A DNA stretch of 40,863 bases from positions 1 through 40,863 of the IMG/VR virus record IMGVR_UViG_3300030207_002573; one strand, given 5' to 3'. The notes below the pieces were generated by a model. That model saw nothing but the letters and a program-made list of their open reading frames with translations, searched no databases and was not told the origin of the DNA. A program made the translations under genes and the position numbers. Numbering within the stretch: the first letter of the stretch is position 1; each line of letters opens with the position of its first letter. Below, piece after piece: positions 1,384 through 35,700 of the stretch. Origin of the DNA: a virus (taxonomy: Duplodnaviria > Caudoviricetes).

Positions 1384-1849
1384 CAAGCCAGAGAGTAAAC
1401 TTTGGCATAAGTTAAGGGAGGGGACTCAAGACCTAGGCGTGTTTTGGACACGCTTAGAGTCTTGGGCGACTCCAGGGATACCCGACTTACATGGCATAAT
1501 TGACGGAACAAGTTTTTGGCTTGAACTTAAAGTCCACAGGTTAAAGTCACTAAAAAGTATCGCACTGCGTCCGCATCAAATTGCGTGGCAAACCAGATAT
1601 TTTATGAATAAAGGTCAAGTTTACAACTTGGTTCATCATCCTTCGTCCTCTACCCTGAATATATTTGGGGGAGAAAGAGCGATTAAGATGGGAGAGACCA
1701 AGGGCCATGCACCATTAGAACCTGACTGGTGTTGTGGTTCTCCGTTTGATTGGCATGGTGTCATCAATCATATTCTGTCATCATCGTCTCATCTCAAATC
1801 AAATCAAGATTACGACGGAGAGACGATTACGACGGAGAGAGGACAATAG
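1367..1849 (+). CDS. PD-(D/E)xK nuclease (VRR-NUC / Holliday junction resolvase-like); probable start at ATG 1376
   Basis: Motifs 'PESKLW', 'PGIPDL', 'FWLELK', 'LRPHQIAW'. The C-terminal tail runs into the repeat tract. Confidence 0.75.
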   Translation: MQAMTSKPESKLWHKLREGTQDLGVFWTRLESWATPGIPDLHGIIDGTSFWLELKVHRLKSLKSIALRPHQIAWQTRYFMNKGQVYNLVHHPSSSTLNIFGGERAIKMGETKGHAPLEPDWCCGSPFDWHGVINHILSSSSHLKSNQDYDGETITTERGQ

Positions 1850-2178
1850 ATAATGATTGATGATGATATATATATTGATCGTTATTGATCGTTATTGATC
1901 AACCTTGATCGGGGACGATTAATAATTGACGAGAGCAAAAAATACAACAAACGACAACAACAGACCATTGTGGCAGTGTATACAATAACCATTGTTTAAC
2001 TAGCAAAGGTATTGACCAATGGTATTTGTGATTTGTCTTATTGTCGTTTGTTTATTGGCAATGTTTTACGATTATAGTTGAGATTAAGATTACGACGAGA
2101 GAGAGCGTGTGTGTATGCGAGGAGTATTGATATAGGTACGTATACATATATCACGTCAAATCAAATCAAATCTTGTCG
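1760..2178. repeat. GA/TC-rich short repeat arrays
   Basis: TCAAA x3 (1794-1807 and 2156-2172); GATTACGACGGAGAGA x2 (1808-1823, 1825-1840) with a variant at 2088-2105; TTGATC x4 at exact 10-bp spacing (1875-1910). Confidence 0.9.
2019..2081 (+). CDS. Putative 20-aa hydrophobic peptide MVFVICLIVVCLLAMFYDYS
   Basis: Translated by hand; AAAGGT RBS-like sequence upstream resembles those of neighbouring genes. Confidence 0.3.
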   Translation: MVFVICLIVVCLLAMFYDYS

Positions 2179-2204
2179 CGGGCAAGGGCCAAAAATGCCG
2201 TGAT

Positions 2205-2264
2205 AAAAAAAGTTTAAAAAAATGCATTATTGGGGTTTACATATAATGTATTGCACATTATATT
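2205..2264 (+). promoter_or_regulatory. Sigma70-type promoter with A-tract UP element
   Basis: -35 TTTACA (2236-2241), 17-bp spacer, -10 TATATT (2259-2264), A-tracts at 2205-2222. Confidence 0.65.
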
Positions 2265-2327
2265 AATAAGCATGGCAATAACGCCACAACGGGCTTAGCG
2301 GCCCACCATTAAAAAGGGTTTAAAAAA

Positions 2328-2837
2328 ATGGTAAAAGCAAACACAAAGTTTTTAAAAACTTTACAGCCAACTACAGCGGCAACTAACACAGTAACAACTG
2401 GCGCGGTTTTAAAAGGCCCATTGTTAACTAGCACAGGCGCATTTAACTACGCAGCTGTGCAAACGTTTATTAATACCAAAGCTGGGGGCAATGCCAACAA
2501 CGTTGCTATAGTGCCATGTAAAGGCGTTACCTTTGCCAGCTTTACAATGGGTAAAGGCGGTAAGGCCCCATGTAAAACACTAGGCGGTTTTAACGCCCAG
2601 CAATATGGCGTTAGGCAAACCATGCTATGGCATGCGTTAAACGGCCAGCTTACTTTAGGCGCTTGGTTAAACGCCTGTAAAAGCAAGGGGGCGCTTGGTA
2701 TACCCAGCGGTGGGCAAAGCGCAACCAAGCCAATAGTTTTGTTGGCATTGCTTAACGGTGGGTTTAGCCGCAACGCTAACACATGGGGCGTGCCACAGGT
2801 ACAGCTAGTAGTTAAACCCCAAACCGTTAAAGGCTAA
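2328..2837 (+). CDS. Hypothetical basic protein with no Asp/Glu, encoded in a GA/TC-free island
   Basis: 169-aa ORF with its own promoter, AAAGGG RBS and terminator. No family recognised. Confidence 0.8.
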   Translation: MVKANTKFLKTLQPTTAATNTVTTGAVLKGPLLTSTGAFNYAAVQTFINTKAGGNANNVAIVPCKGVTFASFTMGKGGKAPCKTLGGFNAQQYGVRQTMLWHALNGQLTLGAWLNACKSKGALGIPSGGQSATKPIVLLALLNGGFSRNANTWGVPQVQLVVKPQTVKG

Positions 2838-2846
2838 CGGTTTTTG

Positions 2847-2875
2847 TGGGGGGCAAAATTGCCCCCCATTTTTTT
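2847..2875 (+). terminator. Rho-independent terminator
   Basis: TGGGGGGC-aaaatt-GCCCCCCA stem followed by T7, about 10 bp after the stop codon. Confidence 0.85.
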
Positions 2876-3147
2876 GTGCCTATTTAGTTGCCTAGGCAAC
2901 TATTAGCTAAGCAACTAATTTGCCAAGGTACCCCTAAATTTTGGCGCGGCAAAAACCATGCCAACTTTTGCGGCCCCCCTGAGACAAAAATGGTGGTATA
3001 CGTAGCACCATTTACCCTGTTTCGCACGATTCAACATTATCCAAAAACATATTACTAGAAAGTCAAGTCCGTTGACCTACCCCCCCTTTTTGTTAGTATT
3101 GATTATAGGTTCATTGTCCTTGAAAAATTTTCGATATATAAGAAAAT

Positions 3148-4614
3148 ATGGTTAGTGAGTTGGAGCATGTTCCCGAAGAACATTTAAAAAAGTTTGCTAC
3201 GTTATTAGACCGAGCGAGTTATTTAACTAAAGCAGAGTCAGCGCGTAGTGATTTTATGACGTATTGCCAGATGGTGTGGCCTGAGTTTGTGAATGGACGC
3301 CACCATGGAATAATGGCGGAGAAGTTTAACCGATTAGCTTCTGGTGATTTAAAACGGTTAATTGTGAATATGCCCCCCCGACATACGAAGAGTGAGTTTG
3401 GTAGTTATTTATTGCCTTCGTGGTTAATGGGTAGGAAGCCAACATTAAAGATTATGCAGACAACGCATACGGCAGAGTTGGCATTTAGGTTTGGACGTAA
3501 AACAAGAAATTTAATGAATACTGATGAGTATCGAGGTATCTTTGATGTTGAGTTACGAGCAGATAGCCAAGCTGCGGGTAGATGGGAGACATCAAAGGGT
3601 GGAGAATATTTTGCGGCTGGAGTTGGTGGAGCGGTGACGGGCCGTGGTGCGGATTTATTAATTATTGATGACCCGCATTCTGAACAAGATGCGTTATCGC
3701 CTACAGCATTAGAACATGCTTATGAGTGGTATACATCTGGCCCCCGTCAGCGATTACAGCCTGGAGGGAGTATAGTAATTATTATGACTCGTTGGGCTGA
3801 GAATGATTTGACGGGTAAGCTGTTGCGTCAGCAGGCGCGAGATATATTAGCAGATAAGTGGGAAGTTGTAGAGTTTCCAGCATTAATGCCAGAGTCGAAT
3901 GAACCATTATGGCCTGAGTATTGGAAGAAAGAAGATTTATTAGCGGTTAAGGGAAGTTTATCGGTAGGAAAATGGGAAGCGCAGTGGCAGCAAAACCCGA
4001 CGAGTGAGGGAGCTGCGATACTTAAACGTGATTGGTGGCAGGAGTGGGAGAAAGAAGAGTTACCGCATTTAGATTATGTTATGCAATCTTATGATACAGC
4101 TTATAGTAAAAAGGAGTCAGCGGATTACAGTGCTATAACAACGTGGGGAGTTTTTTATCCGTATGATGGAGCGCCAGCAAATATATTACTTGTTGATGCC
4201 CAGAGGGGTAGGTGGGATTTTCCTGAGTTACGACGTAAAGCATTAGAGGAATATAAGTATTGGGATCCGGAATGTGTATTAATTGAGGCAAAAGCTTCGG
4301 GTATGCCATTAACTCAAGAATTGCGTAATATGGGTATTCCGGTGCAGAATTATAGTCCTTCTAGAGGTAATGATAAATATACGCGAGTAAATTCTATTGC
4401 ACCATTACTCGAATCAGGATTAGTATGGGCACCAGATACTCGTTGGTCGGAAGAGGTGATTGAGGAGTGTGCGGCGTTTCCTGCTGGAGAGCATGATGAT
4501 TATGTTGATACGGTAACACAGGCGTTGCGAAGATTTAGAGAGGGTGGTTTTATACAGCACCCAGAAGATTATGAAGATGAAGAGGCACCCCCAAGAGTAA
4601 GGAGTTACTATTAA
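3148..4614 (+). CDS. terL: Terminase large subunit
   Basis: Walker A variant 'MPPRHTKS', Walker B 'LLIIDDPH', 'IIMTRW', nuclease motifs 'SYDTA' and 'HDDYVD'. Confidence 0.95.
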   Translation: MVSELEHVPEEHLKKFATLLDRASYLTKAESARSDFMTYCQMVWPEFVNGRHHGIMAEKFNRLASGDLKRLIVNMPPRHTKSEFGSYLLPSWLMGRKPTLKIMQTTHTAELAFRFGRKTRNLMNTDEYRGIFDVELRADSQAAGRWETSKGGEYFAAGVGGAVTGRGADLLIIDDPHSEQDALSPTALEHAYEWYTSGPRQRLQPGGSIVIIMTRWAENDLTGKLLRQQARDILADKWEVVEFPALMPESNEPLWPEYWKKEDLLAVKGSLSVGKWEAQWQQNPTSEGAAILKRDWWQEWEKEELPHLDYVMQSYDTAYSKKESADYSAITTWGVFYPYDGAPANILLVDAQRGRWDFPELRRKALEEYKYWDPECVLIEAKASGMPLTQELRNMGIPVQNYSPSRGNDKYTRVNSIAPLLESGLVWAPDTRWSEEVIEECAAFPAGEHDDYVDTVTQALRRFREGGFIQHPEDYEDEEAPPRVRSYY

Positions 4615-6989
4615 TGGCATTATCTCCTAAAGCAAACAATGTAGATCGCGCTTTAATACAGGCACCAGTTTCTGATTTAAGTTTTGAAGAAGAGGATTTG
4701 CTGGGCCAAGAGAATGATTTTTTCCAAGGTGAGATAGAAATCGTAGAAGATGATGATGGCGGTGTAGAAATAACCGCAGGTATGGATGAGCAGGTATTTG
4801 GTGAAGAGCCTGCAAACTTTTACGATAATCTGGCTGAAAATTTACAGGATTCTACACTTGCAGAAATAGCGAGTTATGTAACTTCTACAGTAGAAGAAGA
4901 TAAAAGTAGCCGTAGTGATTGGGAAGATACTTATATTAAGGGATTAGATTTGCTTGGTATGCGGTATGAAACACGTACTGAGCCGTTTGAGGGTGCTACT
5001 GGTGTAATACATCCGTTATTAAATGAGGCAATTACACAATTTCAGGCATCAGCATATAAAGAAATGTTGCCAAGCCAAGGGCCAGTACGAGCAAATATTA
5101 TTGGTATACCAACACCCGAAACAGAGCAACAGGCCCAACGAGTACAAACATACATGAATTACCAGCTTATGTATGAGATGGAAGAGTATGAGCCTGAGTT
5201 TGACCAGATGTTATATTACTTAGGGTTAGCAGGGAGTGCATTTAAGAAAATTTACCGCGATGAAATGCTAGATAGGCCAGTAAGTAAGTTTGTGCCTGCC
5301 GAAGATGTGATTGTTCCGTACATTGCAACTGATTTACAATCTGCAGAGCGCATAACTCATGTGATAAAAATGTCAAAAAATGAGTTAAAAAAGCTACAGC
5401 TATCTGGTTTTTACATGGAAATGGATAGTGAGAGCAGTGCTTCGCCAGAAACAGATGATGTACAGTCCGCTTATGATGATATTGAGGGTATAAGCCCTTC
5501 ATATAATGATGAACAATTTACATTGTTTGAATGTCATTGTTTCTTAGATATAGAAGAGTACGCAGATAAGCGTGAAGATGGCGAAAGTTCTGGTTTAAAA
5601 CTGCCATATATAGCAACTGTATGCAAAGATACAGGCGAAGTATTGTCAATTAGGCGTAATTACCTACAAAATGACCCAAATAAAGATAAAATTCAGCATT
5701 TTGTACAATATAAATTTACTCCAGGATTAGGTTTTTACGGTTTTGGGCTTATACATCTGCTTGGTAACTTATCTAGAACGGCAACAGCTAATTTACGACA
5801 GTTAATTGACTCTGGTACCTTGGCAAATATGCCAGCAGGATTTAAAGCTCGTGGTTTGCGGATTGCAGATGAGCAAAGTCCGCTAAATCCAGGAGAATTT
5901 AGGGATGTTGATGTTCCAGGAGGTGATTTAAAAGCATCTTTAATGCCATTACCGTATAAAGAGCCTAGTGGAACGTTGTTTCAGTTAATGGGTTTTGTTG
6001 TTGATGCCGCACAACGGTTTATTGGCACGACTGATATGGGTGTTGGTCAGGGTAATCAAGAAATGCCTGTTGGAACAACTATTGCGTTACTTGAAAGAGG
6101 TAGCCGTATAGTTTCTGCAGTGCATAAACGATTACATGCGTCATTAAAACAAGAATTAAAAATGTTAGGTGCTTTATTTGCAGAGGATCCACGGCCTTAC
6201 CCTTATAATGCAGGAGCTGATGCACAAATAAAAAGTTCGGATTTTGATGGTAGGATAGATATCCTGCCAGTAAGTGATCCAAATATTTTTAGTATGTCGC
6301 AAAGGGTTGTATTAGCACAAGAACAACTCAAATTAGCGGTTGCTGCGCCCGATATGCACAATTTGTATGAAGCATATCACCGAGTGTATGAGGCTTTGGG
6401 TGTAAATAATATTGACCAAATATTAAAACCTGAACCTGAGCAACGCCCTATGGATCCAACAATGGAGAATATGGAAACGAGTAATGTGGCTAATGGGCAG
6501 GGTAAATTACAAGCCTACCCAGAACAAGACCATGATGCTCATATTGCAGTGCATTTAGCATATATCAATAGTAGAGTTGCTCAAATGCAAGCACCTGTAG
6601 CGATATTATTAGAAAAACATATTTACGAACATCTTGGTTTAAAAGCTAGGATAGTTGTACAGCAACAAATGCAGGGACAACAAGTTTCACCAGAACAAGT
6701 AGAGGGTATGATTGCTCAAACGCAGGCACAATTAATTGCACAGTTCCAGCAATCGATGCCACCAGCACAAGAGGAAGATCCACTTGTCAAGATCAAGCAA
6801 CAAGAGTTAGCATTGCGTGAACAGGAAATGTTGGCTGACCAGCAAACAGACCAGAGGAAGTTAGCTCTGGATCAACAACGGCAACAGCAACAATTCCAAT
6901 TAGGCCAAGATAGAATAAACAGTACAGAGGATATTGCACAAATGAGAGCTAGGATTGCTTTGCAAAGAAATGCAAACACTAGAGGTTAA
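4614..6989 (+). CDS. Portal protein
   Basis: 791 aa directly after terL; 'HPLLNEA', 'GSAFKKIY', 'GFYGFGL' motifs; Gln-rich coiled C-terminus like P22-type barrel portals. Confidence 0.85.
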   Translation: MALSPKANNVDRALIQAPVSDLSFEEEDLLGQENDFFQGEIEIVEDDDGGVEITAGMDEQVFGEEPANFYDNLAENLQDSTLAEIASYVTSTVEEDKSSRSDWEDTYIKGLDLLGMRYETRTEPFEGATGVIHPLLNEAITQFQASAYKEMLPSQGPVRANIIGIPTPETEQQAQRVQTYMNYQLMYEMEEYEPEFDQMLYYLGLAGSAFKKIYRDEMLDRPVSKFVPAEDVIVPYIATDLQSAERITHVIKMSKNELKKLQLSGFYMEMDSESSASPETDDVQSAYDDIEGISPSYNDEQFTLFECHCFLDIEEYADKREDGESSGLKLPYIATVCKDTGEVLSIRRNYLQNDPNKDKIQHFVQYKFTPGLGFYGFGLIHLLGNLSRTATANLRQLIDSGTLANMPAGFKARGLRIADEQSPLNPGEFRDVDVPGGDLKASLMPLPYKEPSGTLFQLMGFVVDAAQRFIGTTDMGVGQGNQEMPVGTTIALLERGSRIVSAVHKRLHASLKQELKMLGALFAEDPRPYPYNAGADAQIKSSDFDGRIDILPVSDPNIFSMSQRVVLAQEQLKLAVAAPDMHNLYEAYHRVYEALGVNNIDQILKPEPEQRPMDPTMENMETSNVANGQGKLQAYPEQDHDAHIAVHLAYINSRVAQMQAPVAILLEKHIYEHLGLKARIVVQQQMQGQQVSPEQVEGMIAQTQAQLIAQFQQSMPPAQEEDPLVKIKQQELALREQEMLADQQTDQRKLALDQQRQQQQFQLGQDRINSTEDIAQMRARIALQRNANTRG

Positions 6990-6995
6990 TGGTTT

Positions 6996-7709
6996 ATGCC
7001 TTATTTGATTAGTAATGTTCCGCACTTTAATTGTTGGGTGCGGAGGGAGTTTACTTGTAACCATATGGATTATCATGGCGAGTTTCTCCATGCAGTGGCT
7101 TTTGCGGTAAATACAATACCTGATAGGTCGTTAAGTTTTCAGGTTGTATTTACAGGTTGTGAAGAGCTAGAGGAAACAGGCGAAAATGTACATGGCGGTG
7201 CTATGTGGGCAAGGATGCCAATAGAAGCATTAGTTGCAGATATACCCTTGCAAGAGTGGCCCGAGCCAATGTTAGATCATTTATGCCAACCTTGGGATTG
7301 TGAATCTAGAGACCACAGTGTTGTTATTATGGATCGTGTAAGTTCATCACCGTGGATATGTAAAATAGATGGCGAGTTTTACACTGGCAAATATATGTTT
7401 ACTGTAGATTACACAGGTAATGATATAGCAGATGACCCTGCTCAACATAAACAATCCCATGTAATTTACCTTACTGATGCAGGTCAGTGGACTGGTAATT
7501 TTGTAGCATTGCCTAATAATAGAGTGCGAGCTACTAGTCCGGCTCTTTGGCGTACAGGCGAGGGCGCTCCTAATTTTGCACCATCGCAATGGGTACATTC
7601 TGCAGAGGGCCATGAATCTTACTTAGACCCTGTTACTACGTTTGATAATTTGTATTCTGATAATAGGAAGAAAAAGAATGGCAAAAGCTCCCGCAAAAAG
7701 AAAATTTAA
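6996..7709 (+). CDS. Conserved hypothetical phage protein
   Basis: Long ORF continuing the operon; 'GGAMWARMPI', 'YMFTVD', 'ALPNNR' segments; function unknown. Confidence 0.75.
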   Translation: MPYLISNVPHFNCWVRREFTCNHMDYHGEFLHAVAFAVNTIPDRSLSFQVVFTGCEELEETGENVHGGAMWARMPIEALVADIPLQEWPEPMLDHLCQPWDCESRDHSVVIMDRVSSSPWICKIDGEFYTGKYMFTVDYTGNDIADDPAQHKQSHVIYLTDAGQWTGNFVALPNNRVRATSPALWRTGEGAPNFAPSQWVHSAEGHESYLDPVTTFDNLYSDNRKKKNGKSSRKKKI

Positions 7710-7875
7710 AAAAGTACCTAAGACTAAAAAGGGTGTGCCAAAAGTATATGTGCGAGGTGCTAAAAACCCTAAAGCAAGGGAAGCTGAAATTAAAAGAACT
7801 GCGAAGCTGTATAGGCAAGGTAAACTAACACCTGCTATGATGGAGCGAATTGATAAGCAAAGGAGTAAATCATAA
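7678..7875 (+). CDS. Small Lys/Arg-rich protein
   Basis: Probable start MAKAP at 7678 within ORF 7642-7875; coupled to the next ORF (TAATG). Confidence 0.6.
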   Translation: MAKAPAKRKFKKVPKTKKGVPKVYVRGAKNPKAREAEIKRTAKLYRQGKLTPAMMERIDKQRSKS

Positions 7876-8141
7876 TGGCTACTGCAAAAAAACCCGCTGC
7901 TAAAAAGAGCTCTGGTAAGTATAGTTCTATTCCAGGAGCTGGAAGGTTTTCTAAAAGCACGTTAGATAAGGTTTACAAAAGAGGATTAGGTGCATACTTT
8001 TCTTCTGGCAGTAGACCTAAAACCTCGCAACATGCGTGGGCTATGGGCAGAGTTAAAAGTTTTGTTTCGGGTAAAGGTGGCGCTCGTAAAGCAGATTCTG
8101 ATTTGTTAGGTAAAGGCAAAAGTAAAAAGAAAACAACGTAA
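7875..8141 (+). CDS. Small basic protein (DUF5824-like)
   Basis: 'LDKVYKRGLGAY..SGSRP...QHAWAMGRV' motif; AGGAG RBS. Confidence 0.7.
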   Translation: MATAKKPAAKKSSGKYSSIPGAGRFSKSTLDKVYKRGLGAYFSSGSRPKTSQHAWAMGRVKSFVSGKGGARKADSDLLGKGKSKKKTT

Positions 8142-8152
8142 GGTTAGCACTG

Positions 8153-8332
8153 ATGCCTCATTATACTAAGCCGTTGCGGAAAGTAATAAAAAGTTTAAAC
8201 AAAGCGTCTAAATCACATAGAGGCCAAGCAAAAACTTTAAGTAAAATATTAAAAGACCAGAAAAAAGGATATAGTAAAGTTGTCCAGAGCAAAGCGAGAC
8301 CCAAGGGTAGGAACAGGAAAAAAGCCTCCTAA
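8153..8332 (+). CDS. Small basic protein, 59 aa (absent from ORF track)
   Basis: Hand-translated MPHYTKPLRKVIKSLNKASKSHRGQAKTL...; fills the gap in the operon. Confidence 0.55.
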   Translation: MPHYTKPLRKVIKSLNKASKSHRGQAKTLSKILKDQKKGYSKVVQSKARPKGRNRKKAS

Positions 8333-8582
8333 AACTGGCAGAAGGCTTTACACTGATGAAAACCCTAGAGATACTGTCAGGATAAAGTATGCTACTCCTG
8401 CTGATGCTAAAGCAACGGTTGCGAAAGTAAAAAAGATAAAAAAACCTTTTGCTAGGAAGATACAGATATTAACTGTATTAGAGCAACGCAGTAAATACGG
8501 AGGTAAACCAAAACAAGCAGCCATAGCAAAAGCAGGAAAAAACCAAATAAGAAAAGCAAGACCTAAAAAGAGGAGTGTATAA
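8280..8582 (+). CDS. Small basic hypothetical protein
   Basis: 'DPRVGTGKKP..GRRLYTDENP' motif; TTG start. Confidence 0.65.
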   Translation: MSRAKRDPRVGTGKKPPKTGRRLYTDENPRDTVRIKYATPADAKATVAKVKKIKKPFARKIQILTVLEQRSKYGGKPKQAAIAKAGKNQIRKARPKKRSV

Positions 8583-8713
8583 TGGCTGTAAAAAAATTAT
8601 CCCCTAAACAAAAGAAAATCGCTAGTAAAGCACCACCAAGAAACCAGATAACTGGTGCAGATTTTAAAAGGTTAGGGATGATGAAACGGAAAAATGGGAA
8701 GAAAAGAGCATGA
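8582..8713 (+). CDS. Small basic protein, 43 aa (absent from ORF track)
   Basis: MAVKKLSPKQKKIASKAPPRNQITGADFKRL...; GAGGAG RBS; TAATG and ATGA coupling on both sides. Confidence 0.65.
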   Translation: MAVKKLSPKQKKIASKAPPRNQITGADFKRLGMMKRKNGKKRA

Positions 8714-8982
8714 TGAATCCAGCAACAGATTATGATGGGGATGGCAAAATTTCTATTGAAGAAGAACAAGCCAGTGATGCCCATGATAAACAAGAAACGC
8801 AGAGGTACATGGCTATTTGCGCTTTTGCATTGATGGTTTGTATTACAATTCTTATGTGTACGCCTATTGTTCCTGAAGCAAGAGTAACTGCATTGAGCGG
8901 ATTAATTAGTTCTATGTACTTTGCTCTTGCTAGTTTGTGCGGTGCGTATATGGGATTTAGCACTTGGGCGAATAAAAAATGA
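8710..8982 (+). CDS. Two-TM membrane protein with EF-hand-like loop, holin-associated
   Basis: DYDGDGKISIEE followed by two hydrophobic helices; immediately precedes the holin. Confidence 0.65.
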   Translation: MMNPATDYDGDGKISIEEEQASDAHDKQETQRYMAICAFALMVCITILMCTPIVPEARVTALSGLISSMYFALASLCGAYMGFSTWANKK

Positions 8983-9380
8983 TAAATTTATTAGGCTCTT
9001 TAGTCCAACCTGTTACAGGACTGCTTGATAAATTTATAGAAGATAAAGATCAAAAGAATAAACTTGCCCATGAAATATCTACAATGGCAGAACGCCATGC
9101 CCAAGAGCTTGCAAAAGGCCAGCTTGAGATAAACAAAGCAGAGGCACAAAGTCGTAATATTTTTGTAGCAGGATGGCGTCCGTTTATCGGCTGGACGTGT
9201 GGCGTAGCAATGGCATATAATTATGTTGTGCATCCGATAATGATTTTTACATTAGCACAATTAGATTATCTTGTTGCGCTACCTGCACTCGATTTAGGTG
9301 AAATGATGCCTGTACTGATGGGGATGTTAGGTTTAGGTGGCCTCAGAAGTTTTGAGAAATACAAGGGGATATCTAAATAA
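8979..9380 (+). CDS. Holin (3TM, GTA-release type)
   Basis: 'EINKAEA...FVAGWRPFIGW...LMGMLGLGGLRSFEK' signature; adjacent to endolysin. Confidence 0.85.
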   Translation: MINLLGSLVQPVTGLLDKFIEDKDQKNKLAHEISTMAERHAQELAKGQLEINKAEAQSRNIFVAGWRPFIGWTCGVAMAYNYVVHPIMIFTLAQLDYLVALPALDLGEMMPVLMGMLGLGGLRSFEKYKGISK

Positions 9381-9829
9381 TGTTTATGTTATCAACAAGA
9401 AGTAATGAGCGATTAGAGGGTGTAAACAGCCTTTTAGTCAAAGTTGTTAAAAAAGCGATTACTGTAACTACAGTTGATTTTGGCGTTATTTGTGGTAGGA
9501 GAACACTTGAAGAGCAACAGTCTTTGTTTGCTAAAGGTGCAACGAAGACTATGAAGTCTAAACATTTGGAAGGTAAAGCAGTTGACCTGATGGCTTATAT
9601 AGACGGACGTGCTTCTTGGGAAATAAATGTTTATGACGAAGTAGCGGATGCGATGGCAGAAGCTGCTCGGGAATGTAATGCCGCTGTCCGTTGGGGCGGT
9701 GCTTGGACTACAGCAAACATAGCTGCATGGGAAGGTACAATGGAAGAAGCAATGATGAATTATATCGATATTCGTAGGGGGGAGGGTAAACGACCATTTA
9801 TAGATGGCCCACATTTTGAGTTAATGTAA
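9380..9829 (+). CDS. Endolysin, peptidase M15 (L-Ala-D-Glu endopeptidase-like)
   Basis: 'GRRT..EQ', 'SKHLEGKAVD', 'RWGGAW', 'DGPHFEL' Zn-peptidase motifs. Confidence 0.9.
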   Translation: MFMLSTRSNERLEGVNSLLVKVVKKAITVTTVDFGVICGRRTLEEQQSLFAKGATKTMKSKHLEGKAVDLMAYIDGRASWEINVYDEVADAMAEAARECNAAVRWGGAWTTANIAAWEGTMEEAMMNYIDIRRGEGKRPFIDGPHFELM

Positions 9830-10023
9830 TGTCAGAGCTTTACATATACGAAAAAATGTTGAAAAATATCCGCGAACGGAAAGATGTGGTAGTAGATGCT
9901 ATATGTCATGGCCCTGTACCAGATTTTACTGCATTCAAGGAACTCCGCGCAAAACTCGCGGAACTTGCAATAACAGAACAGGATCTTAGAGACCTGCTAG
10001 AAAAGGTGGAAGATGATGAGTAA
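9829..10023 (+). CDS. Hypothetical protein
   Basis: 64-aa ORF coupled to both neighbours. Confidence 0.65.
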   Translation: MSELYIYEKMLKNIRERKDVVVDAICHGPVPDFTAFKELRAKLAELAITEQDLRDLLEKVEDDE

Positions 10024-26713: not shown

Positions 26714-28339
26714 ATGGCAACAGAAGAACAAACCATTATCCAAAGAGAGGCTCCTGAGGTCGAAGCCTTAAAATTAGGTCTGATAAATGCAGCTAAGGGA
26801 CTTGTTGAAACAGCTCCTACAGGTGGTTTACCACAAACACAGTTTGCTGCTTATGATCCTTTTCAAGATACAGCTAGAACATTAGCTACTTCCGCTATTG
26901 GTTCTTATGCTCCTTATTTAACAGAGGCTTTTACAGGCAACCAAGAAGCTACAAATAGATTAAAAAATGCAGTAACTAAAGCATACACTGATGCGCTTGC
27001 TAGTTACACCGATACAGATAGAGATACATTACTACAAACCGCTGGTGATAGAATCACTACTGCATTAGGCACTCCTACAGGATTTGGTGGTATACTTGGT
27101 GCTATCAATTTGGGAGCAGGGGCTACGCAAAACGTCCGTAGAAATATATTTGGTACTCCAGGAGAAGCTGGAACAGGTGCTTTGAGTGCAATTGATGCAC
27201 AACGGCTAGGTATAGACCAAGGGATTACTCGTACAGCTACATCTGATACAGAGCGAGCAAGATTAGCTCAAGTAGAAGCTGTTACAAAAGCTCGTGCAGC
27301 AGGAGATTTTGGTAAACAAAAAGCAACTGATGCAATATCAGCATTAGCAGGAACAGGTTTTAGCCCTACTGAGGCAGGAATAGGTGGTGTTTTTGACCCT
27401 AGTACAGCAGTTACTGAGTTCCTTAACCCTTATACATCTGCTGTAATAGATCAAAGTTTGGCTGATTTACAAAGGGCAAGTGATATTGCGGCTATACGTG
27501 AAGATGCACAGGCAGCACAGGCAGGGGCGTTTGGTGGTTCCCGAGCAGGTATTGTACAAGCAGAACGCGATAGAAATTTGTTAGATGCTCAAGCAAGGAT
27601 TGCATCACAATTAAGGCAACAAGGGTACGGACAAGCTCTACAGCAAGCTCAGCAAGCGTTTGAAGCAGGCAGAGCGGGACAGCAAAATTTAGCACAACTA
27701 ACAGGACAGTTAGGACAGGCAGGAGCAGGTACACAATTAAGTGCAGAACAGTTAGCACAACAGGGAGCATTGGGTTCTGGACAGTTGGGGTTAAGTGCAT
27801 CACAAGCAGCTGCAGACCTTGCTCTTAGAGGAGGACAGTTAGGATTAAGTGCAGAAGAATTAGCATTGCGAGAGGCAGCGCAACAAGGCTCCCTTGCTAG
27901 TGAAGCAGCTAGGTTAGGGTTGAGTGAAGCAGAATTAAGAGCGCAGGTTGGCTTGCAAGGAGCGCAACTTGGATTACAAGGAGCGCAAGGTTTACAAAGT
28001 GTTGCTGGCGATATAGGACGTCAGGCAACGCAACGTGCGGCACTTGGCGAGTTACAATCTGGGTTACAAAGACAAGATATTGATATGATGAACCAGTTAG
28101 GTCAACAACGGTTCCAGACAGAGCAAGCGAAACTAGATGCCCAACAACAAGACCAATTAGCCGAAGTATACGAACCATACCAACGGTTAGGTTTTTACAG
28201 TGATATATTACGAGGAGCGCCATCTACACAAATGAGTATATCACAGGCTTCTACTCCCAATCCTTCTTTACTTAATCAAGTTGTCGGTGGTGCGGCTACA
28301 GGGTTAGGTATAGCAGGAGCAGCTAATAAAATATTTTAG
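26714..28339 (+). CDS. Putative DNA ejection (pilot) protein, Gln/Ala/Gly-rich
   Basis: 'FLNPY...AGAFGGSR' motif and helical QAG repeats. Confidence 0.65.
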   Translation: MATEEQTIIQREAPEVEALKLGLINAAKGLVETAPTGGLPQTQFAAYDPFQDTARTLATSAIGSYAPYLTEAFTGNQEATNRLKNAVTKAYTDALASYTDTDRDTLLQTAGDRITTALGTPTGFGGILGAINLGAGATQNVRRNIFGTPGEAGTGALSAIDAQRLGIDQGITRTATSDTERARLAQVEAVTKARAAGDFGKQKATDAISALAGTGFSPTEAGIGGVFDPSTAVTEFLNPYTSAVIDQSLADLQRASDIAAIREDAQAAQAGAFGGSRAGIVQAERDRNLLDAQARIASQLRQQGYGQALQQAQQAFEAGRAGQQNLAQLTGQLGQAGAGTQLSAEQLAQQGALGSGQLGLSASQAAADLALRGGQLGLSAEELALREAAQQGSLASEAARLGLSEAELRAQVGLQGAQLGLQGAQGLQSVAGDIGRQATQRAALGELQSGLQRQDIDMMNQLGQQRFQTEQAKLDAQQQDQLAEVYEPYQRLGFYSDILRGAPSTQMSISQASTPNPSLLNQVVGGAATGLGIAGAANKIF

Positions 28340-28347
28340 GAAGTATT

Positions 28348-29949
28348 ATGGAACCACTTGACAGACCCATGTTTTCACTGAAACAAGATGGTTCAGTGTA
28401 TTTATCTCCTGCATTACGTTATATGGCACAAAACGCAGATGTACTTAATCAGTCTATAGCTAATGCTAATGCAAGAGGGTTGCAGGGTTTAGCACGGCAA
28501 GCGCAAATAGAGCGCGATGCAGAATTACATTATGCTTTCCATGGTCAGCCAGAAGGCAGGGCATATGGTGGACGGACATTTCTTGGGGGGTTATTAGAGC
28601 CAAGGTTAGGTGATACTTTTGGTTTATCACCAGAGCGAAGAGAAGAATTAATACAAGAACGCGATGCACCAAGTGGTTCAACAGGTATGGTTACGCCTCC
28701 GCCAACTAATAATGAGTTAGTGCCTTTAGTGCCTATTGGTGATTTTGATTCGTCTGTTTTATCACAAGGTCCTGGAGATGGTGGTGGTATGGCAGAAGGC
28801 GGAGAAGTAAAAGCAGATAATGGATACCAATCAAGTGCTGTTGTACAAGGTTATCTTCTTGCAAATCCTGAAGTATTACAACATGCTGTCCGTACAGCAC
28901 AGGGAACAGGTATAGGTCCTGGAACAGAGTTTCAAAGAGTTGTGGAAAATACTGCAAGAGAGCATTTCCGTGATTTTGGAATGGACGAAGGTAGGCAAGT
29001 AGCAGGTTATGCCGATAATGGCAGATCTTTAATGCAGGAAGAAGTAACCAGATTACCTTCTTTAAGACGTCCAACGGAAGGTATTGCTTCTGTACCTATT
29101 TCACCTATCAACCCAAGAATGCTTGCTTTTGCAACTATACTAGCAAACACGCGAGATATGCCAGATCCAGGAACTCAAGGTGAATTACGAGCAGAATTTA
29201 GAAACAAAGGAGGAGGATCTGGTGCAAGTACGATTACTGATATATACAACCTCACTGGTACAATAAGCCCATCGTTACGTGATAGGTTAATTGATCGTTT
29301 TTATGGGGCTACTAATGAAGATAAACTTCCTGGAAGAGTTGATGATATAATTAGTTACATGTTTAGAAGAAACGATGATGGGGACAATGCGTTTGAGGTA
29401 ACTGGAGGAACAGAGGGGTTATTACGAGCATATGATCAATTAGGTATAACAGGAGCAGGTGATACCTATGCAGATAGACAAGTAACAGATTTTCTTGATG
29501 TAATAAGGAAAAATCCCGTTTCTAGTATAAATTTTGATGGGACTGGTGGAGCAGATCAAATTAGTTTAGGAGGACCTACCGGAACAGGTTATGATAGTGT
29601 GCAACAAATGATTGCTGATTTTCCAAATATGGCACAACAATTTGCTGCTGTTCCTACAATTAATCCAGTAGGGATTTTAAATACATTATATAATATGTAC
29701 ACAGGGGATATTAGTAGAAACCCATATGATACAAGTGATGCAACAGGTACACGACCAGATAGGAGTGTACCTTCCCCAATGGATTTTGGAGGGGGAATGA
29801 TAGGAAATGCGCCACTTACAGAACAAGAAATGCAAATAATGGATGCGTTACAATTTAATTCTCCTGGATATCCTGGACTCGTGGGATCAGGAAAAGACAG
29901 CGGATTTGCTGGCATACAAGGAATAAGAGATACCCCTACGTTTACTTAA
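28348..29949 (+). CDS. Putative internal virion protein
   Basis: Long ORF in the ejection cluster; 'LDRPMF' start; MAEGG motif. Confidence 0.55.
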   Translation: MEPLDRPMFSLKQDGSVYLSPALRYMAQNADVLNQSIANANARGLQGLARQAQIERDAELHYAFHGQPEGRAYGGRTFLGGLLEPRLGDTFGLSPERREELIQERDAPSGSTGMVTPPPTNNELVPLVPIGDFDSSVLSQGPGDGGGMAEGGEVKADNGYQSSAVVQGYLLANPEVLQHAVRTAQGTGIGPGTEFQRVVENTAREHFRDFGMDEGRQVAGYADNGRSLMQEEVTRLPSLRRPTEGIASVPISPINPRMLAFATILANTRDMPDPGTQGELRAEFRNKGGGSGASTITDIYNLTGTISPSLRDRLIDRFYGATNEDKLPGRVDDIISYMFRRNDDGDNAFEVTGGTEGLLRAYDQLGITGAGDTYADRQVTDFLDVIRKNPVSSINFDGTGGADQISLGGPTGTGYDSVQQMIADFPNMAQQFAAVPTINPVGILNTLYNMYTGDISRNPYDTSDATGTRPDRSVPSPMDFGGGMIGNAPLTEQEMQIMDALQFNSPGYPGLVGSGKDSGFAGIQGIRDTPTFT

Positions 29950-29965
29950 ATAATGGGCAATTGAT

Positions 29966-32725
29966 ATGATGAATAAAATGATGATGCAACCAATGACCCC
30001 CGCTTCAGAAAACTCGGGCATTGCTTCAGGTATGATGGCCGAGGTTGCTCCACCTGATGGAGTGGAGACCATGCGATCGATGGCTTCTCAGATGGAGCAG
30101 GTATATAATAAACTAGATAGTTCTGAAAATATAGAAGATGTTATTAATGCAATGCGTGGTGATGAACAACCATTGTCAGAACGGTATAATGAGTTAGCTG
30201 AATTAGTTGGCCCTGCCGATGCAAAGAAAACACCTGAGTCTGTTCTTACTGTATTACAGCCTACTTTCCAAATATTACAATCAGTACCTGATGGGGGTAT
30301 TGCATCAGCCCCGATGGGAGGTGTGGAAAGTTCCGAAGAAAATTTTAGTAGCCCCTCTGCCACAGCACCAACTGATCAGGCAGAGGCTGTCCTAGCAATG
30401 TCGCGTGGTGAGCAACCAGTAGGCATGAGGTTAGGCGGTATGCCGATGCCTTTTAGACAGAATTATATGGAGAGAAACACCCCTTTCATAACTTCTAGTA
30501 ATGCTCAAAATATGACAGCTGAGGCATTAGCTAGAAACAATCCAAATGCTCCAGGATTATTAGGTCAATTACAAACTGGTCGCACATTATCTCCTATTCC
30601 GCTTCCAACTTATCCTGATATAGATATAGGTAATATAAGAAGTAAGGTGAAAGATTTTACAGGTCTTTTAGATAGCTTTGATTTAGTTAAAGGGGAAGAG
30701 GATCCTGTAAAGATTGCTGAACAGTTAGATATATTACGTAAACAGTATGCACCTACAGCAGAAGAACCAGAAGATATACTCGCAAGACGTAAGGAGTTTA
30801 TGGGTACAACAGATGCAGATGCTGCAGAAACCCAAGCATTTTTAGCATTAGCTCGAGCAGGTTCACAACTTGCCCAAACCCCAGGATCTTTACTTACAGG
30901 ATTAACAACAGCAGCAGGGCCTTTTGCTGAAAGTTTAAGTAAAATTGCAGCAACTAAAACTAAAGCAGAGCGTGAAGCAAAAGGTGCGGCTTTTGATCTT
31001 TCACTAAAACAAAAAGAAAAGGTTAGGGCTTTTGGGGAAACAACTGCTAATAAAGCTATTGAAGAGGCCCTTGCAAATAAAAGATCAAATGCCAAAACAA
31101 TTAATGATCAAACTGCACTCCTTGTTCGCGAAGGTTTACAAGAAGCAGGTAAAAACAGAGATGCTGCAATTAAAGCAATAAATGCTGGATATACAATTGA
31201 TAAATCTAATAATACTTTAAGTGACCAAGTAGTTTACGCAAGGAAAAACCCAACAACAGGCGAAATGGAAACCCTTGTTTTTTATGATAAGGCCGGAAAA
31301 TATTTAGATCCTAAAACAAACAAATTTGTTGATGGCGCTCCCCCTAATGATTACCGTCCTGTAAAACCCTTAGAGGTAGATGACTTAATTAATGGGCCTA
31401 ATTCAGGAGCATTAAAAGATGCGCTCAAAAGCGCAAAACCTAAACCTCTCCAACTTTTACAAAGAGATGCAAATGGCAAAGCGACTGGTTTTAAAAGGGT
31501 AGAGGGTTTTTTCCTAAACGGTAGGGATTACATACCAAATGCTAATGGAGGGTTTACAGCATTAAATCCTGGAGAATATTTTAGGGATGATGGCAAATCG
31601 ATTTACGAAGTAAAAGATGAGCAAGGTGTTAGATTTAAAATTATTAGAAACCCATCCGATAACTCTATAATTTCTCGTACACCTATAGACGAGCGCTCAC
31701 CAAATGCTTTTGGTGCTGCTACTGGTGGTAACTCCCCTTATGGTAAATATACAGTTACCGAAGAAAACAAAAGTAGATTAGAAAACTTATATGGAAAAAC
31801 ATTAACTGTTGGCGATAGCGTTGATTTAGGTAACCCAACAATTTACAGAGTAACTCCTTCTGCTTCTTTCCCTAAAAACCAAGACAATCAGTACATATTA
31901 CCTGAAAAACTTAGAAATGAGTTACAAGAAAAAACAGCGAATAGAGGTGAATTAATTAGAGAAATAAATGATAAGTTGTTAAATGAAGATTTCTTAAAAA
32001 CTTTTGGTATTAAAGGTGGTATGACTTCATTTATCTCTGGTAATGTTGCAGGTCTTTTTGGTGATACTAAGTTTGCTAGAGCATTAACTGATGTAAATTC
32101 TGAGGAGTATAGAACTACAAGTCAATTACTTGATAGATTAGTTAAACGTTCTTTAGCATTATCGTCAAGGTTCCCTGTAAGAGAATTAGAACAACTTCAA
32201 CAGTTATTGCCAAAAGCAGGTGAAATTTTTACACAACCTACGGCTGTCCTTAAACAGATTCAAACATTTATGGCGGCAAATACAAATGAACAATTAACTG
32301 ATTTACATTTACTAAACCCTGTGGATAACCCTTCAGCAAGAGTATATCAAATGCAGAGTGGGTCAAAAGAAGACCCATTTAGGTTTGATGAAGTGATTAC
32401 CACTACAAACTCAGATGGGGAACAAATGAGATATCTTCCTGCTTTTAATTTTGCCAAAAGGTTAGCTGAAAGTGGTAGAGATTTGCAAAACCAATTTGCT
32501 ATAATGACGGTTAAACAAGCTGAAACACTAGGCTTGCCAGAAAATGTTTGGAAACGTAAAGAAGCTAATCCGCAAGAATTAATAACGGTTAAATTAAAAA
32601 CAATTAGAGCACAACAGGAGGGTAGACCAAACATAACCTTCACAGGTGAACGTGTTGAGACACCACCTGAAAGTAAATCTTTTATTGGTCGAGGTCCGTT
32701 TTTTGGTTTTGGCGTAGCGAGGTAA
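29966..32725 (+). CDS. Putative internal virion / ejection protein
   Basis: 919-aa ORF, largely helical; position in cluster. Confidence 0.6.
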   Translation: MMNKMMMQPMTPASENSGIASGMMAEVAPPDGVETMRSMASQMEQVYNKLDSSENIEDVINAMRGDEQPLSERYNELAELVGPADAKKTPESVLTVLQPTFQILQSVPDGGIASAPMGGVESSEENFSSPSATAPTDQAEAVLAMSRGEQPVGMRLGGMPMPFRQNYMERNTPFITSSNAQNMTAEALARNNPNAPGLLGQLQTGRTLSPIPLPTYPDIDIGNIRSKVKDFTGLLDSFDLVKGEEDPVKIAEQLDILRKQYAPTAEEPEDILARRKEFMGTTDADAAETQAFLALARAGSQLAQTPGSLLTGLTTAAGPFAESLSKIAATKTKAEREAKGAAFDLSLKQKEKVRAFGETTANKAIEEALANKRSNAKTINDQTALLVREGLQEAGKNRDAAIKAINAGYTIDKSNNTLSDQVVYARKNPTTGEMETLVFYDKAGKYLDPKTNKFVDGAPPNDYRPVKPLEVDDLINGPNSGALKDALKSAKPKPLQLLQRDANGKATGFKRVEGFFLNGRDYIPNANGGFTALNPGEYFRDDGKSIYEVKDEQGVRFKIIRNPSDNSIISRTPIDERSPNAFGAATGGNSPYGKYTVTEENKSRLENLYGKTLTVGDSVDLGNPTIYRVTPSASFPKNQDNQYILPEKLRNELQEKTANRGELIREINDKLLNEDFLKTFGIKGGMTSFISGNVAGLFGDTKFARALTDVNSEEYRTTSQLLDRLVKRSLALSSRFPVRELEQLQQLLPKAGEIFTQPTAVLKQIQTFMAANTNEQLTDLHLLNPVDNPSARVYQMQSGSKEDPFRFDEVITTTNSDGEQMRYLPAFNFAKRLAESGRDLQNQFAIMTVKQAETLGLPENVWKRKEANPQELITVKLKTIRAQQEGRPNITFTGERVETPPESKSFIGRGPFFGFGVAR

Positions 32726-32729
32726 TTAC

Positions 32730-35700
32730 ATGTCTCTTGATGATTCATTAGATGAGCGAATGATTCAAGCTGTTTCTGGGCCTGAAATAGACGAAGTAGA
32801 GGTTTTAAAATCTGCACAGGATATAACTAAGGTTGGTGATCCTGTAGAAGGTGCCTCACTTGGTTTTGAAGGTGAAGCACAACCTTCTAGGGTAACTGGT
32901 TTAGGTGATGGTTTAGAGCCTGTATTTGGTGATAGTATTTTAACAACAGCGATAACAGGTTTTAATAGAGGGTTAGCTAATTTAGTTGACCCTGTCATAT
33001 ATAATGCTGCTGTTGCACTCAGGAAAATAGGAGAAGCAACAGGCAGTCCTATGTTGGCAAATATCCAGCCAGAAAGAAACCAAATGGCTCGTGTATTTGC
33101 TTCAGGTGATTTTGAAACACAAAATATTATGAGTAATGTATTAGGTATACCTATTCAATATGGGGAAGGTGCTGATATTGGTGTAACTCCAGAAGAGGGA
33201 TTAGCAAGCGAGTTTGTATATGGGGGAGGTAAATTTCTTGGAGAGGGCGCTCCTGTCGCAATGGGGTTACAAACGGCGGCTAATCTTGCTACCAAGTCTG
33301 CAGGATTACTAACCCCTAAAGTTGTTCCCGTTGAGGGAGGCACTGCGGCTAATGTTGTAGACGATATTTTACGGATGCAAGCACAAGCTCCTGGAACTGT
33401 AGCCGCGACAGAGGCAGGCATCAGTGGTTTAGCAGGTGGTGTTACAGAAACAGCAGATAGTCCCACATTAGGCATGACCGCAGCTTTCTTGCCATCTGCT
33501 ATTCCAGGAATTGTCAAAAACTTACCCGTCGTAAGAGGTGGCACAGGAGCTATAGGTTGGCTGAGACAAAGAACTCCTGGAAAGATAAGTGATTTAAGGG
33601 ATGTTGCCACAGGTGCAAAAAGTGCAACTGAAGGAGAAGGTGGGCAACTTTTAGTTAATAAAGCCCAAAGGATGATACAAGAACAATTAAACCTAAACCC
33701 AGAACAATCAAAAGCCGCTGTTGAACGATTCCAAGAAATTGTAGCTAAAATACCAGAACTTGAAACAATGGCTCCTGGACAAGTATTTGATAACCAAGCA
33801 TTAATAAAAACATTCCAAGATGCTGTATTAGATGCACCTAATGAACAAATCCCTGCTCTTAATGCTTTGTTAGAAGGCTATGTAAGTGGAGCTACACGAT
33901 TTAAAGGTACAATAGGTGTAGAGGGTACCGATACTGGAGTAACTGGCAATAATATTTTAGTAATGGATAGTGCTAGAAAAACATTTAACCTAGGAGTAAA
34001 AAAAGAGGCGGATGACATAGTTGATGAAGAGGCGTTTTTAACACGAGAGGCCAGTAAGATAGAACGCACAGGTTCGCAAAGACAAACAGAAAGGTTAAAG
34101 TTGCAAGCATCACTTGCTAAAAGAGTAGAAGACGCTAGAGAAGCAGTAGAGAAAGAAAAAATTAGGTTAGGTATAGTACAAGAAAGAAGACCTATCAAAG
34201 CTTCAGGTAAGCGCGAAAAAGTATTAACTAGACCAGATGATTTAGTTGAACCAGCGGCAGTATTAGCATTACAACAAAGAGTGCAAAGAGAAATTTTACC
34301 CCGCGAAGGAACAGAAGCTTTTTCGTTTGACAAATTACCTGCAAGTATAAAATCAATAGCGCAGTGGGATTCGAGTAAAGATTTTACTTTTCGTGATTGG
34401 TTATTAGCAAGGGAAGAAGTTAGTAATGCAATTAGTAAGGGGAGCACTTATGGCGATGCACAGCTTCCTACACTCATGGCATATAGAGATATGCTTGAAG
34501 ATTTTGCCATAACTGGTTTTAACAACCTCGGCCCTAAATATAAAGAGTTTATTGATTTTGCTAAAACAAATTTGTACGACCCTTTTGAACGTTCTTTAAT
34601 TATGGGTGTTACAAGGAGAGATCAAAAAGCAGATCGGTTTATTACCCAAGGGGAACAGATTACAAAAACATTTCTAAAACAAGAACCCGAAATATTACGA
34701 AGGTTTGTTAAAACTGTTGGTACAGATGCCCCAGAAGTAAATGATTTAAAAAATGTTTTATTAGATGATTTATATGATTCTGCTTATGTTGGAACCAACG
34801 GCAAATGGGATGATGCAAAAATTAATAAATGGATGGGTGATAATAAAAATTATTTAGAAGAGCTTCCTGGAACAGGTGATAATAATTTTTTCCAAGATTT
34901 AACAAATACACAGCGATTATTACAACAATCATTATTACGTAGGAAACAAGCGACCCAACGTAAAGAAGAAATACAAAAGAGTTTGTTAGGTAAGTTTTTT
35001 GAAAGAGAAACAAAACAAGGCACTCTACAACCAGAAGAAGATTTCCTTACACAATTAGTAATGAGGCCCACAAAAGAAGGTGGGCAACGGACTATGGTTA
35101 AAACTAGGAATGATTTTCTTGCCTCAGAAGAAGGAAAATCATTAGGAAAAACTGGTGCGGAAAATGTATTTAGAAGAACCATCTTTGAAAAATTAGATGA
35201 ACAAATGAACATTATGCAAGACCCAGAAAAATTTAAAGCGTGGATGCAACAAGATAAAAACACACAATTATTAAAAGATGCAGGTTTTTCTGATTCACAT
35301 ATGAAAGACCTATACTTATTAGCTGATGCTTCTGAGCGTATAAATACAATACCCATTTTAGAGTTTAAGGGTTTAAATAGTAGTGGAATTATTGCAAAGA
35401 TTGCAGAAGCTCTTGGCACATCACCTGCTGCTGTTTCTACTAGGGTGCTTGCTGTAAAAGAAAACAGGATTTCCCCAAGAACAGCTTTTATTTATTTAGC
35501 AAGTAGGGCTATAGGAGCGCAAAACCAAATACGAATGAATGCACTTATGCGCGAAGCAATTACAGACCCACAATTAGCAAGAATGCTTACAACAGAATTA
35601 CCTGAAGCAAACCCTGTAGGGCGTATTCCAGGACCAATACAGCGTAAAGTAAATAATTATCTAATTGGTTCTGGTATAGAAGCAGTAGAACAAATAGACC

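Follow-up and report, generated by a model that had tools for sequence, protein, structure and literature searches.

Selected flanks at restriction sites point to a predicted thymine modification of TC steps in HTVC023P-type podophages

The IMG/VR viral record IMGVR_UViG_3300030207_002573 (positions 1 to 40,863; hereafter the window, meaning this whole stretch of DNA) retains the restriction targets CCWGG and CCGG only where a T precedes or an A follows them, i.e. where the outer C:G pair lies in a TC/GA step. This footprint is supported as selection tied to the GA/TC step, in agreement with a long GA/TC-free island in the same DNA, and across related genomes it follows the distribution of a thymine-modification cassette located beside polA. 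We consider it quite probable that a T carrying a bulky group, probably a sugar, at TC gives neighbouring CCNGG and CCGG sites partial protection from host restriction. The window is assigned as a 41-kb fragment of an HTVC023P-type podophage because of its terminase, portal, capsid, GroES-like, tail and replication genes as well as the identity of its terminase large subunit (TerL).

Restriction-site footprint and codon choice

The window (40,863 bases, 40% GC) contains 39 CCWGG sites by count, from 1472 to 35632, namely: 34 TCCWGGA, 5 with a single T or A flank and none unflanked. The original prediction, made by eye, that nearly all CCWGG sites are TCCWGGA is thus borne out, and its five exceptions are exactly the five single-flank sites (TCCAGGG at 1472, GCCTGGA at 3760, GCCAGGA at 12597, CCCTGGA at 21040 and CCCAGGA at 30881). 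With the window's rate of T before CCW (0.242), the chance of zero unflanked sites is 3e-15 and that of at least 34 doubly flanked sites is 5e-37. A shuffle of synonymous codons within open reading frames (ORFs) of at least 100 aa, which hold 36 of the 39 sites, gives 18.8 unflanked, 17.2 singly flanked and 4.3 doubly flanked sites (18.8/17.2/4.3) vs. 0/5/31 seen, so that the depletion of unflanked sites holds against a codon model as well. By the same shuffle, CCGG is found 7 times vs. approximately 45 expected and CCSGG 0 times vs. 13.6. A T or A flanks each of the 7 CCGG (P = 0.004), on both sides in one case; it had been claimed that there are six, all flanked, and the flanking stands while the total does not, the site at 29579 (ACCGGA) having been overlooked. 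Restriction-type palindromes in general are depleted beyond codon and Markov expectation in the window and its relatives, and the window shows strong site avoidance, unlike HTVC027P.

In called ORFs, 38 of the 39 CCWGG sites are in-frame Pro-Gly codon pairs, and the 39th (14761), within ORF 14701-14895, is Pro-Gly as well. Since Pro-Gly is always written CCN-GGN, the protein forces CCNGG at these positions. The spelling CCW-GGA that had been noticed for Pro-Gly is confirmed: of the 36 Gly codons that follow Pro in the window, 35 are GGA, as against 217 of 966 Gly codons elsewhere, and the base preceding Pro-Gly is T in 32 of 36 cases vs. 130 of 527 before other Pro codons.

In order to extend these counts, we pooled the window and 21 relatives (22 genomes, 1.25 Mb) and compared them with 8 cassette-less genomes. 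G028 and G030, from other lineages, were counted apart, and G008, G011, G012, G015, G022, G025, G029 and G037 were used in family searches only. Genomes longer than 60 kb were taken to 60,000 bases, and HTVC027P, DSL-LC04, M6, PhiJL001, CAjan and iggy to 50 kb. CCWGG sites without, with one and with both flanks number 6/242/503 in the 22 genomes vs. 676/373/63 in the cassette-less ones. Among in-frame CCWGG of the 22 genomes the figures are 1/178/432 vs. 243/253/61 expected. TCCWGGA persists mainly where Pro-Gly forces CCNGG: in frames 1 and 2, where the site is avoidable, 11 are seen vs. 34 expected. The idea that sites are purged unless flanked by TC or GA therefore survives as a footprint of selection tied to that step and fails as a statement of full protection; flanking lowers the cost of a site without removing it.

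The constraint reaches the proteins themselves. Pro-Gly occurs 714 times in the 22 genomes vs. 1208 expected (Gly-Pro, 752), and residues that have no codon ending in T (K, E, Q, M and W) are rarer before Pro-Gly (101 of 714 vs. 2760 of 14679, p = 0.0016). Neither imprint is found in the 8 cassette-less genomes (Pro-Gly 518 vs. 528; preceding residue, p = 0.58).

The same TC rule holds over CCWGG, CCGG, CCATGG, CAATTG and the GDGCHC variants. Among 6-bp palindromes in the 22 genomes, those containing TC are spared relative to those containing only TG (16 vs. 14 words, Mann-Whitney p 1-2e-4). In both-strand counts over the 1.25 Mb, GTGCAC is found 0 times vs. 470 expected and GGGCCC 0 times vs. 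197, while GAGCTC has an observed/expected ratio (o/e) of 1.14 and GGATCC is at expectation.

Independently of these sites, the window contains a GA/TC-free island that is real by comparison with chance: it measures 779 bases, the next-longest such run in the window is 64 and the longest in 100 first-order Markov simulations is 118. Runs of at least 150 bases are present in 19 of the 22 clade genomes vs. 0 of the 8 cassette-less controls. Most relatives keep, elsewhere, a normal paralog of the island gene (e.g. L085:11939-12388 and L085:4829-5386), and across the clade the GA/TC and Asp/Glu content of the island gene declines by degrees: the ORF has 0 GA/TC in the window, G001, G002, G017, G018 and G024, 1-7 in G005-G007, G009, G010 and G016, and no purge in G003, G004 and G027. 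The island protein belongs to no recognized family, its Atlas matches being unnamed viral clusters only. A model of the normal paralog (pLDDT 85) has no Foldseek match; several winged-helix rows appear, weakly (VIA Z at most 4.9). Transcription by bacterial RNA polymerase can be silenced by bulky substituents on 5-hydroxymethyluracil (hmU) (PMC6457204), so it is plausible that the island is an unmodified unit that would be read first. Just upstream, positions 1800-2170 carry short repeats rich in GA/TC (TCAAATCAAATC, GATTACGACG and TTGATCGTTA), which could be a packaging or replication site.

A thymine-modification cassette in related genomes

All 21 clade relatives examined carry a thymine-modification cassette comprising a dUMP-hydroxymethylase-like thymidylate synthase homolog (TS), HMUDK_hel and a glycosyltransferase. 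Beside polA these are joined by an HD nucleotidase and a small conserved gene. Homologs of M6 gp58 (TS, 39-45% identity) and gp55 (HMUDK_hel) are found in 21 of 21 relatives, and of gp59 (HD) in 18 of 21. HMUDK_hel (aGPT-Pplase1, PF18723) is present in 30 of 37 records and missing from the 7 cassette-less ones; M6 gp55 is dispensable in PMC8989533. The genes that follow in the M6 and ViI pathway, where a P-loop kinase and an amino-acid transferase make the final bases (PMC8989533), are a different matter. The P-loop 5-hmdU DNA kinase (PF18748) is found in 0 of 24 uncultured records, with M6 and ViI as positive controls, and no clade genome exceeds the cut-off for the amino-acid:DNA transferase (AADT, PF18724), for which M6, ViI and G030 are positive; three weak PF18724 matches fall on the HMUDK_hel gene itself. 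M6 gp54 matches only G030, of a different lineage, and the dCMP deaminase (M6 gp65) has no match in the relatives.

The slot between HMUDK_hel and TS is occupied by one of several transferases: GT1, GT2, or TAGT together with a radical SAM gene. GT1, which has no Pfam match, is a putative transferase judged only by where it lies and by a 31% match pattern. GT2 is modelled as a GT-B fold (pLDDT 74) with a GT4-like Foldseek match (E 5e-14). Neither has a match among cultured phages. The simplest reading of the gene content is that the predicted modification is direct glycosylation of hmU. Accessory genes vary: TAGT or GT2 is paired with a radical-SAM/SPASM gene in L341:11223-12990, L374, L386, L407 and L399:12728-13684, and other cassettes add an FkbM methyltransferase (L097:15816-16553) or a mannose-6-phosphate-isomerase-like cupin (L085:18607-18990). 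These additions possibly tailor the sugar.

The distribution of the cassette was compared with the footprint at 234 polA loci, not dereplicated, namely: 51 with the full cassette, 20 truncated, 156 without and 7 unclassed. CCWGG sites (none/one/both flanks) number 3/110/216 at the full-cassette loci vs. 1546/1327/229 at those without; the truncated loci have 3/35/27. After rough dereplication, the counts by transferase are 1/27/72 for GT1 (13 loci), 20/104/214 for GT2 (41 loci, with 17 of the 20 unflanked sites coming from L516) and 2/22/52 for TAGT (13 loci). The unrelated G028 (polA 27%) carries GT2 and has counts of 2/18/10 and two islands, while G030, with kinase-type genes, has 145/89/14 and no footprint. 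There are also 20 loci with no detected cassette (18 classed as cassette-less, 2 too short) that have no CCWGG at all, TCCWGGA included; in G035 and G036, which lack CCWGG, every Pro-Gly is CCS-GG. Thus, under CCWGG pressure and without the cassette, TCCWGGA is not spared. These zero-CCWGG loci (L268, L273, L287-L290 and 14 more) are relatives of DSL-LC04.

In one subgroup (4 loci: L396:7906-8973, L482, L485 and L487) the slot holds a T4-BGT-like gene (Atlas match score 0.97) and the footprint is absent (44/36/3). The subgroup is nested inside the clade on the polA tree (support 96/88) and tolerates TG palindromes (GTGCAC 26 vs. 23 expected, TGCGCA 46 vs. 28), possibly indicating a switch of modification context. 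On this tree the branches of L172/L173 and of the fragment L145 are anomalous, and all three were left out of its reading. The short locus L145:1612-4716 has a polA 80% identical to that of G001 with the helicase directly upstream and no cassette between, a possible case of cassette loss.

The window itself ends before the region concerned. Complete relatives measure 57-63 kb, and the window is without the primase-to-TerS part (approximately 20 kb). L490, the nearest relative to span that part, with 90.5% DNA identity to the window over its last 7574 bases, carries HMUDK_hel-GT2-TS 4.6-8 kb beyond the primase at which the window ends.

Mechanism and rival explanations

In the mechanism that we propose, the TS homolog would make hydroxymethyl-dUMP, which polA would incorporate instead of T. 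The glycosyltransferase would then add a sugar directly to hmU at the TC step, and not at TG. A modified T beside CCWGG, CCSGG or CCGG would hinder host enzymes, with T on both strands protecting best, and incomplete occupancy or blocking would lead to the deletion of avoidable sites and the double flanking of forced ones. One promoter-gene-terminator unit would be kept TC-free, so that the RNA polymerase of the host could transcribe it when modified DNA enters the cell. Finally, the window's own genome would carry the cassette in its missing 20 kb.

That flanking T may hinder cutting at GC-only sites is suggested in PMC6449724, and counts in cultured phages with modified thymines bear on it. 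M6 is the mirror image of the clade (TG palindromes 0.98, TC 0.22), and its kinase prefers TG, as stated in PMC6449724 from unpublished work. In ViI (100 of 157 kb counted; L569 and L571), whose modified thymine is chemically established, 142 of 149 CCGG are flanked by T or A, CCWGG is free and there are 3 CCSGG; we found no paper that notes this CCGG flank rule. MspI, ScrFI and StyD4I digest ViI DNA incompletely (PMC6449724, supplementary table 2). TG-modified phages resist CCWGG cutters from within the site (PMC6449724; PMC13458397). A TC-only phage is unable to protect CCWGG from inside, hence the need for flanks.

Several readings compete over the identity of the modified base. The original prediction held that the C or G is modified, with 7-deazaguanine at GA in CAjan as a precedent. 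GA and TC are the same base-pair step, so the footprint fits a preQ0/G+ base that phage DpdA would place at the G of GA, which would shield the final G of the site; motifs with a GA target have been published (PMC7544227, PMC10484667), and the G-modified CAjan has CCGG flank counts of 27/88/20 (none/one/both), although iggy (188/97/12) has no bias. Because CAjan shows this bias too, the footprint alone is unable to name the base. The flanks of palindromes were likewise rejected as a means of deciding between T and C/G, since both C...G and A...T words are rescued: a 5′ T rescues CCATGG (1.95), CAATTG (1.64) and CACGTG (1.66), and a 3′ C rescues several A...T words (ACTAGT 1.57, AACGTT 1.53) and not others (AAGCTT 0.99, ATGCAT 1.00), while for CTTAAG the 3′ C bias is present in controls as well. 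What separates the readings is gene content. DpdA (NF041059) and QueC are found in 0 of 37 related records and TGT (PF01702) in 0 of 26, and the CAjan and iggy proteins DpdA, FolE, QueD, QueC and QueE have no match in the window and 29 relatives, mostly near-complete, with controls positive. The search of the genomes for dpdA, queC and folE thus came back empty, and the footprint tracks the thymine cassette, not 7-deazaguanine genes, which makes a 7-deazaguanine base very improbable here. Since the relatives carry thymine-modification genes, the T of TC, just outside CCWGG, is likely the modified base. The cassette might instead modify the C of TC, by way of hydroxymethylcytosine and a sugar: the top PDB match of the TS homolog is a CMP hydroxymethylase (E 2e-14), and TAGT-family transferases, known to act on 5-hydroxymethylcytosine (5hmC), occupy the slot in one subgroup. 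We consider this distinctly unlikely, as the motif RSND..G..GAN, which matches M6 gp58, has Asn at the uracil-specifying position in 21 of 21 relatives, as in thymidylate synthases, where CMP hydroxymethylase has Asp, and genome-wide hydroxymethylcytosine would be expected to protect all CCWGG and leave no need for a purge. As for the window's own N6/N4 DNA methyltransferase, which has an SPPY motif (presumably of the N4-cytosine type) and is the only modification gene in the window, it might be thought to methylate the C of TC or the A of GA. It was rejected as the cause of the footprint, and this reading is extremely improbable, since only three of the 22 genomes with the footprint carry the gene (the window, G001 and G002, with one stop in G002) and its presence goes with tolerance of GGCC/GGSCC: o/e is 0.92 and 1.25 in the three carriers vs. 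0.45 and 0.26, and Gly-Pro is written GGS-CC in 78 of 113 cases in the carriers and GGW-CC in 554 of 642 in the other 19 genomes. The enzyme is likely a GGCC methylase, predicted as a second shield in three close kin only.

Two further readings concern selection itself. There might be no shielding: the phages could simply avoid longer or degenerate targets (such as V-CCNGG-B), or have inherited their codon use as a clade, with the cassette coincidental. In favour of this, the 22 genomes share ancestry, avoidance extends to 6-bp palindromes in general, and L516 and PhiJL001 have cassettes without the footprint. Such a reading is unlikely in view of the two-sided preference of 34:5, the single TC rule across several site types, the loss of the footprint in a nested subgroup and its presence in the unrelated G028 and ViI, and the TC-free islands, which require an agent that reads TC. 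The modification might also be as proposed while the cutter is a phage nuclease acting on unmodified host DNA at CC(N)GG, or while a blocked host methyltransferase or other reader exerts the selection. The CCWGG rule does hold in relatives of 36-49% GC that possibly have different hosts, and no host enzyme was identified. The probability of this reading is nevertheless low: cassette-less relatives purge CCWGG too, close relatives vary in how far they tolerate CCGG and L516 does not avoid CCWGG, as different host systems would lead one to expect, and no such nuclease was recognised among the annotated genes (annotation covered part of the ORFs).

A number of observations weigh against shielding by a modified T at TC. 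The cassette lies outside the window, so that we infer its presence in the window genome: there is no match to the missing 20 kb, the 80 primase loci being from relatives only, and the nearest contig (L489, 95% identical) stops before the cassette region. The 22 footprint genomes are kin rather than independent cases. Some TC-containing words (GATC, TCGA and GAATTC) stay depleted (o/e 0.72, 0.49 and 0.67), and palindromes with TC are reduced as much as those with TG when the window is taken by itself (0.55 and 0.53). Three dissimilar transferases share one TC context, for which the mechanism does not account, and the best structural matches of GT2 act on substrates other than DNA. The BGT-like subgroup totals just 68 kb, and its hosts may simply lack the enzymes in question. 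L516, with a GT2 cassette intact by length, has CCWGG counts of 17/17/1 (17 of 35 unflanked), although its TG palindromes are still mostly purged; PhiJL001 has TS, HMUDK_hel and a glycosyltransferase, yet no CCWGG footprint; and unflanked CCGG number 56, 43, 35 and 32 in G006, G016, G013 and G028, respectively. These cases indicate that the footprint also needs matching host pressure. In addition, HpaII cuts ViI DNA completely, and M6 and phiW-14 DNA is fully cut by MspI, HpaII, ScrFI and StyD4I (PMC6449724). Complete cutting by some enzymes implies that flank shielding depends on the enzyme and the base.

Genomic setting and relation to known systems

The coordinates of the features discussed are collected below. 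The polA of G001 is 51% identical to that of HTVC027P, and the gene order (Pam3-like gp32-34, primase, helicase) is shared with HTVC023P and HTVC027P. A host search among GTDB genomes, bearing on whether the host is SAR11 as for HTVC023P-type phages, gave a single match, a phage-sized contig in a metagenome-assembled genome, which was set aside.

Features of the window and their positions (1 = first base of the window)
Feature	Position	Strand	Remark
Span of the 39 CCWGG sites	1471..35633	.	all Pro-Gly codon pairs
GA/TC-free island	2203..2981	.	779 bases; TG and CA freely used; no CCNGG/CCGG
Sigma-70-like promoter match	2236..2264	+	TTTACA-17-TATATT, 10/12; inside island; consensus match only
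Island gene	2328..2837	+	169 aa, without Asp or Glu; no Pfam/PHROG family
Terminator-like hairpin and T run	2846..2876	+	ends island gene
Terminase large subunit	3148..4614	+	58-63% identical to HTVC023P, HTVC027P, 023Pt_psg01 and DSL-LC04
Span of the 7 CCGG sites	4266..31297	.	4267, 4339, 7539, 11695, 25780, 29579, 31293; each with 5′ T or 3′ A
TCCAGGA, example of a doubly flanked site	5720..5726	+	Thr-Pro-Gly in portal gene
N6/N4 DNA methyltransferase	35975..36646	-	SPPY motif; sole modification gene in window
Primase, cut by window end	40205..40863	+	90.5% DNA identity to L490 over the 7574 bases up to the window end

The system works like the thymidine hypermodification of M6 and ViI combined with site avoidance, and lies outside both the kinase/AADT pathway and the 7-deazaguanine systems. 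Like the clade, M6, ViI, phiW-14 and SH-Ab 15599 carry TS, aGPT-Pplase1/HMUDK_hel and an HD nucleotidase beside polA (PMC8989533, PMC6449724, PMC13458397), and phages of the M6/ViI type share modification in a dinucleotide context and protection from restriction, ViI having the same CCGG flank rule. They differ in that the clade has a glycosyltransferase in place of the P-loop kinase and the amino-acid:DNA transferase, and in that TG-modifying phages resist BstNI, whereas the context of the clade reads TC only and leaves CCTGG unprotected from inside. The 7-deazaguanine phages CAjan and iggy (PMC7544227, PMC10484667) use the same GA/TC step, with a similar CCGG bias in CAjan, but need DpdA/Que genes, which are absent from the relatives. 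For the phage group itself, PMC9599517 (Wittmers et al. 2022) describes TS and aG/PT-PPlase1 near polA in HTVC023P-type clades V, VIII and IX, with a deoxynucleotidase and a putative glucosyltransferase in the same region; this is the same gene pair in the same group, and the text consulted of that paper gives no target context, site footprint or TC-free island.

A sugar on a hydroxymethyl-pyrimidine in DNA is also made by T4 BGT and by TET-associated GT-A and GT-B transferases (bioRxiv 2023.12.21.572611). There, GT-B genes are often beside ThyS and the tested substrate is 5hmC, while the predicted substrate of the clade transferase is hmU with a TC preference; the supplements of that study may list related TS-GT clusters. 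The proposed modification would thus resemble these systems in chemistry and differ from them in its base. Trypanosome base J is another sugar on a hydroxymethyl-pyrimidine in DNA. Avoidance of restriction sites in lytic phages was reportedly described by Rusinov et al. in 2018. The clade resembles such phages in that silent changes have removed CCNGG, CCGG and a large number of palindromes, and differs in that forced sites stay and their neighbours are selected, so that whether a site is avoided depends on its having a flank that can be modified. A literature search, which was without most subscription papers, found no description of sites being kept according to their flanks.

Taken together, these results suggest, though we hold the whole picture tentatively and with slightly less than even confidence, a marine lineage with a predicted kinase-free, base-J-like sugar at TC and a swappable transferase that re-aims it. 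This mark would shield sites from outside their recognition sequence and would have left its trace on codon choice, on the proteins (40% fewer Pro-Gly) and on one duplicated pioneer gene kept free of TC. The predicted cassette of a very common ocean phage group would thereby be tied to TC (and not TG) and to a measurable cost, and selection is seen on the bases next to restriction sites that the protein sequence makes unavoidable. If the picture is true, flanks and palindrome rescue read the modification context of a phage from its genome alone. Applied to M6 and ViI, this count yields the known TG preference of the former and a CCGG flank rule in the latter, so it may serve as a sequence-only readout of modification context in uncultured phages.

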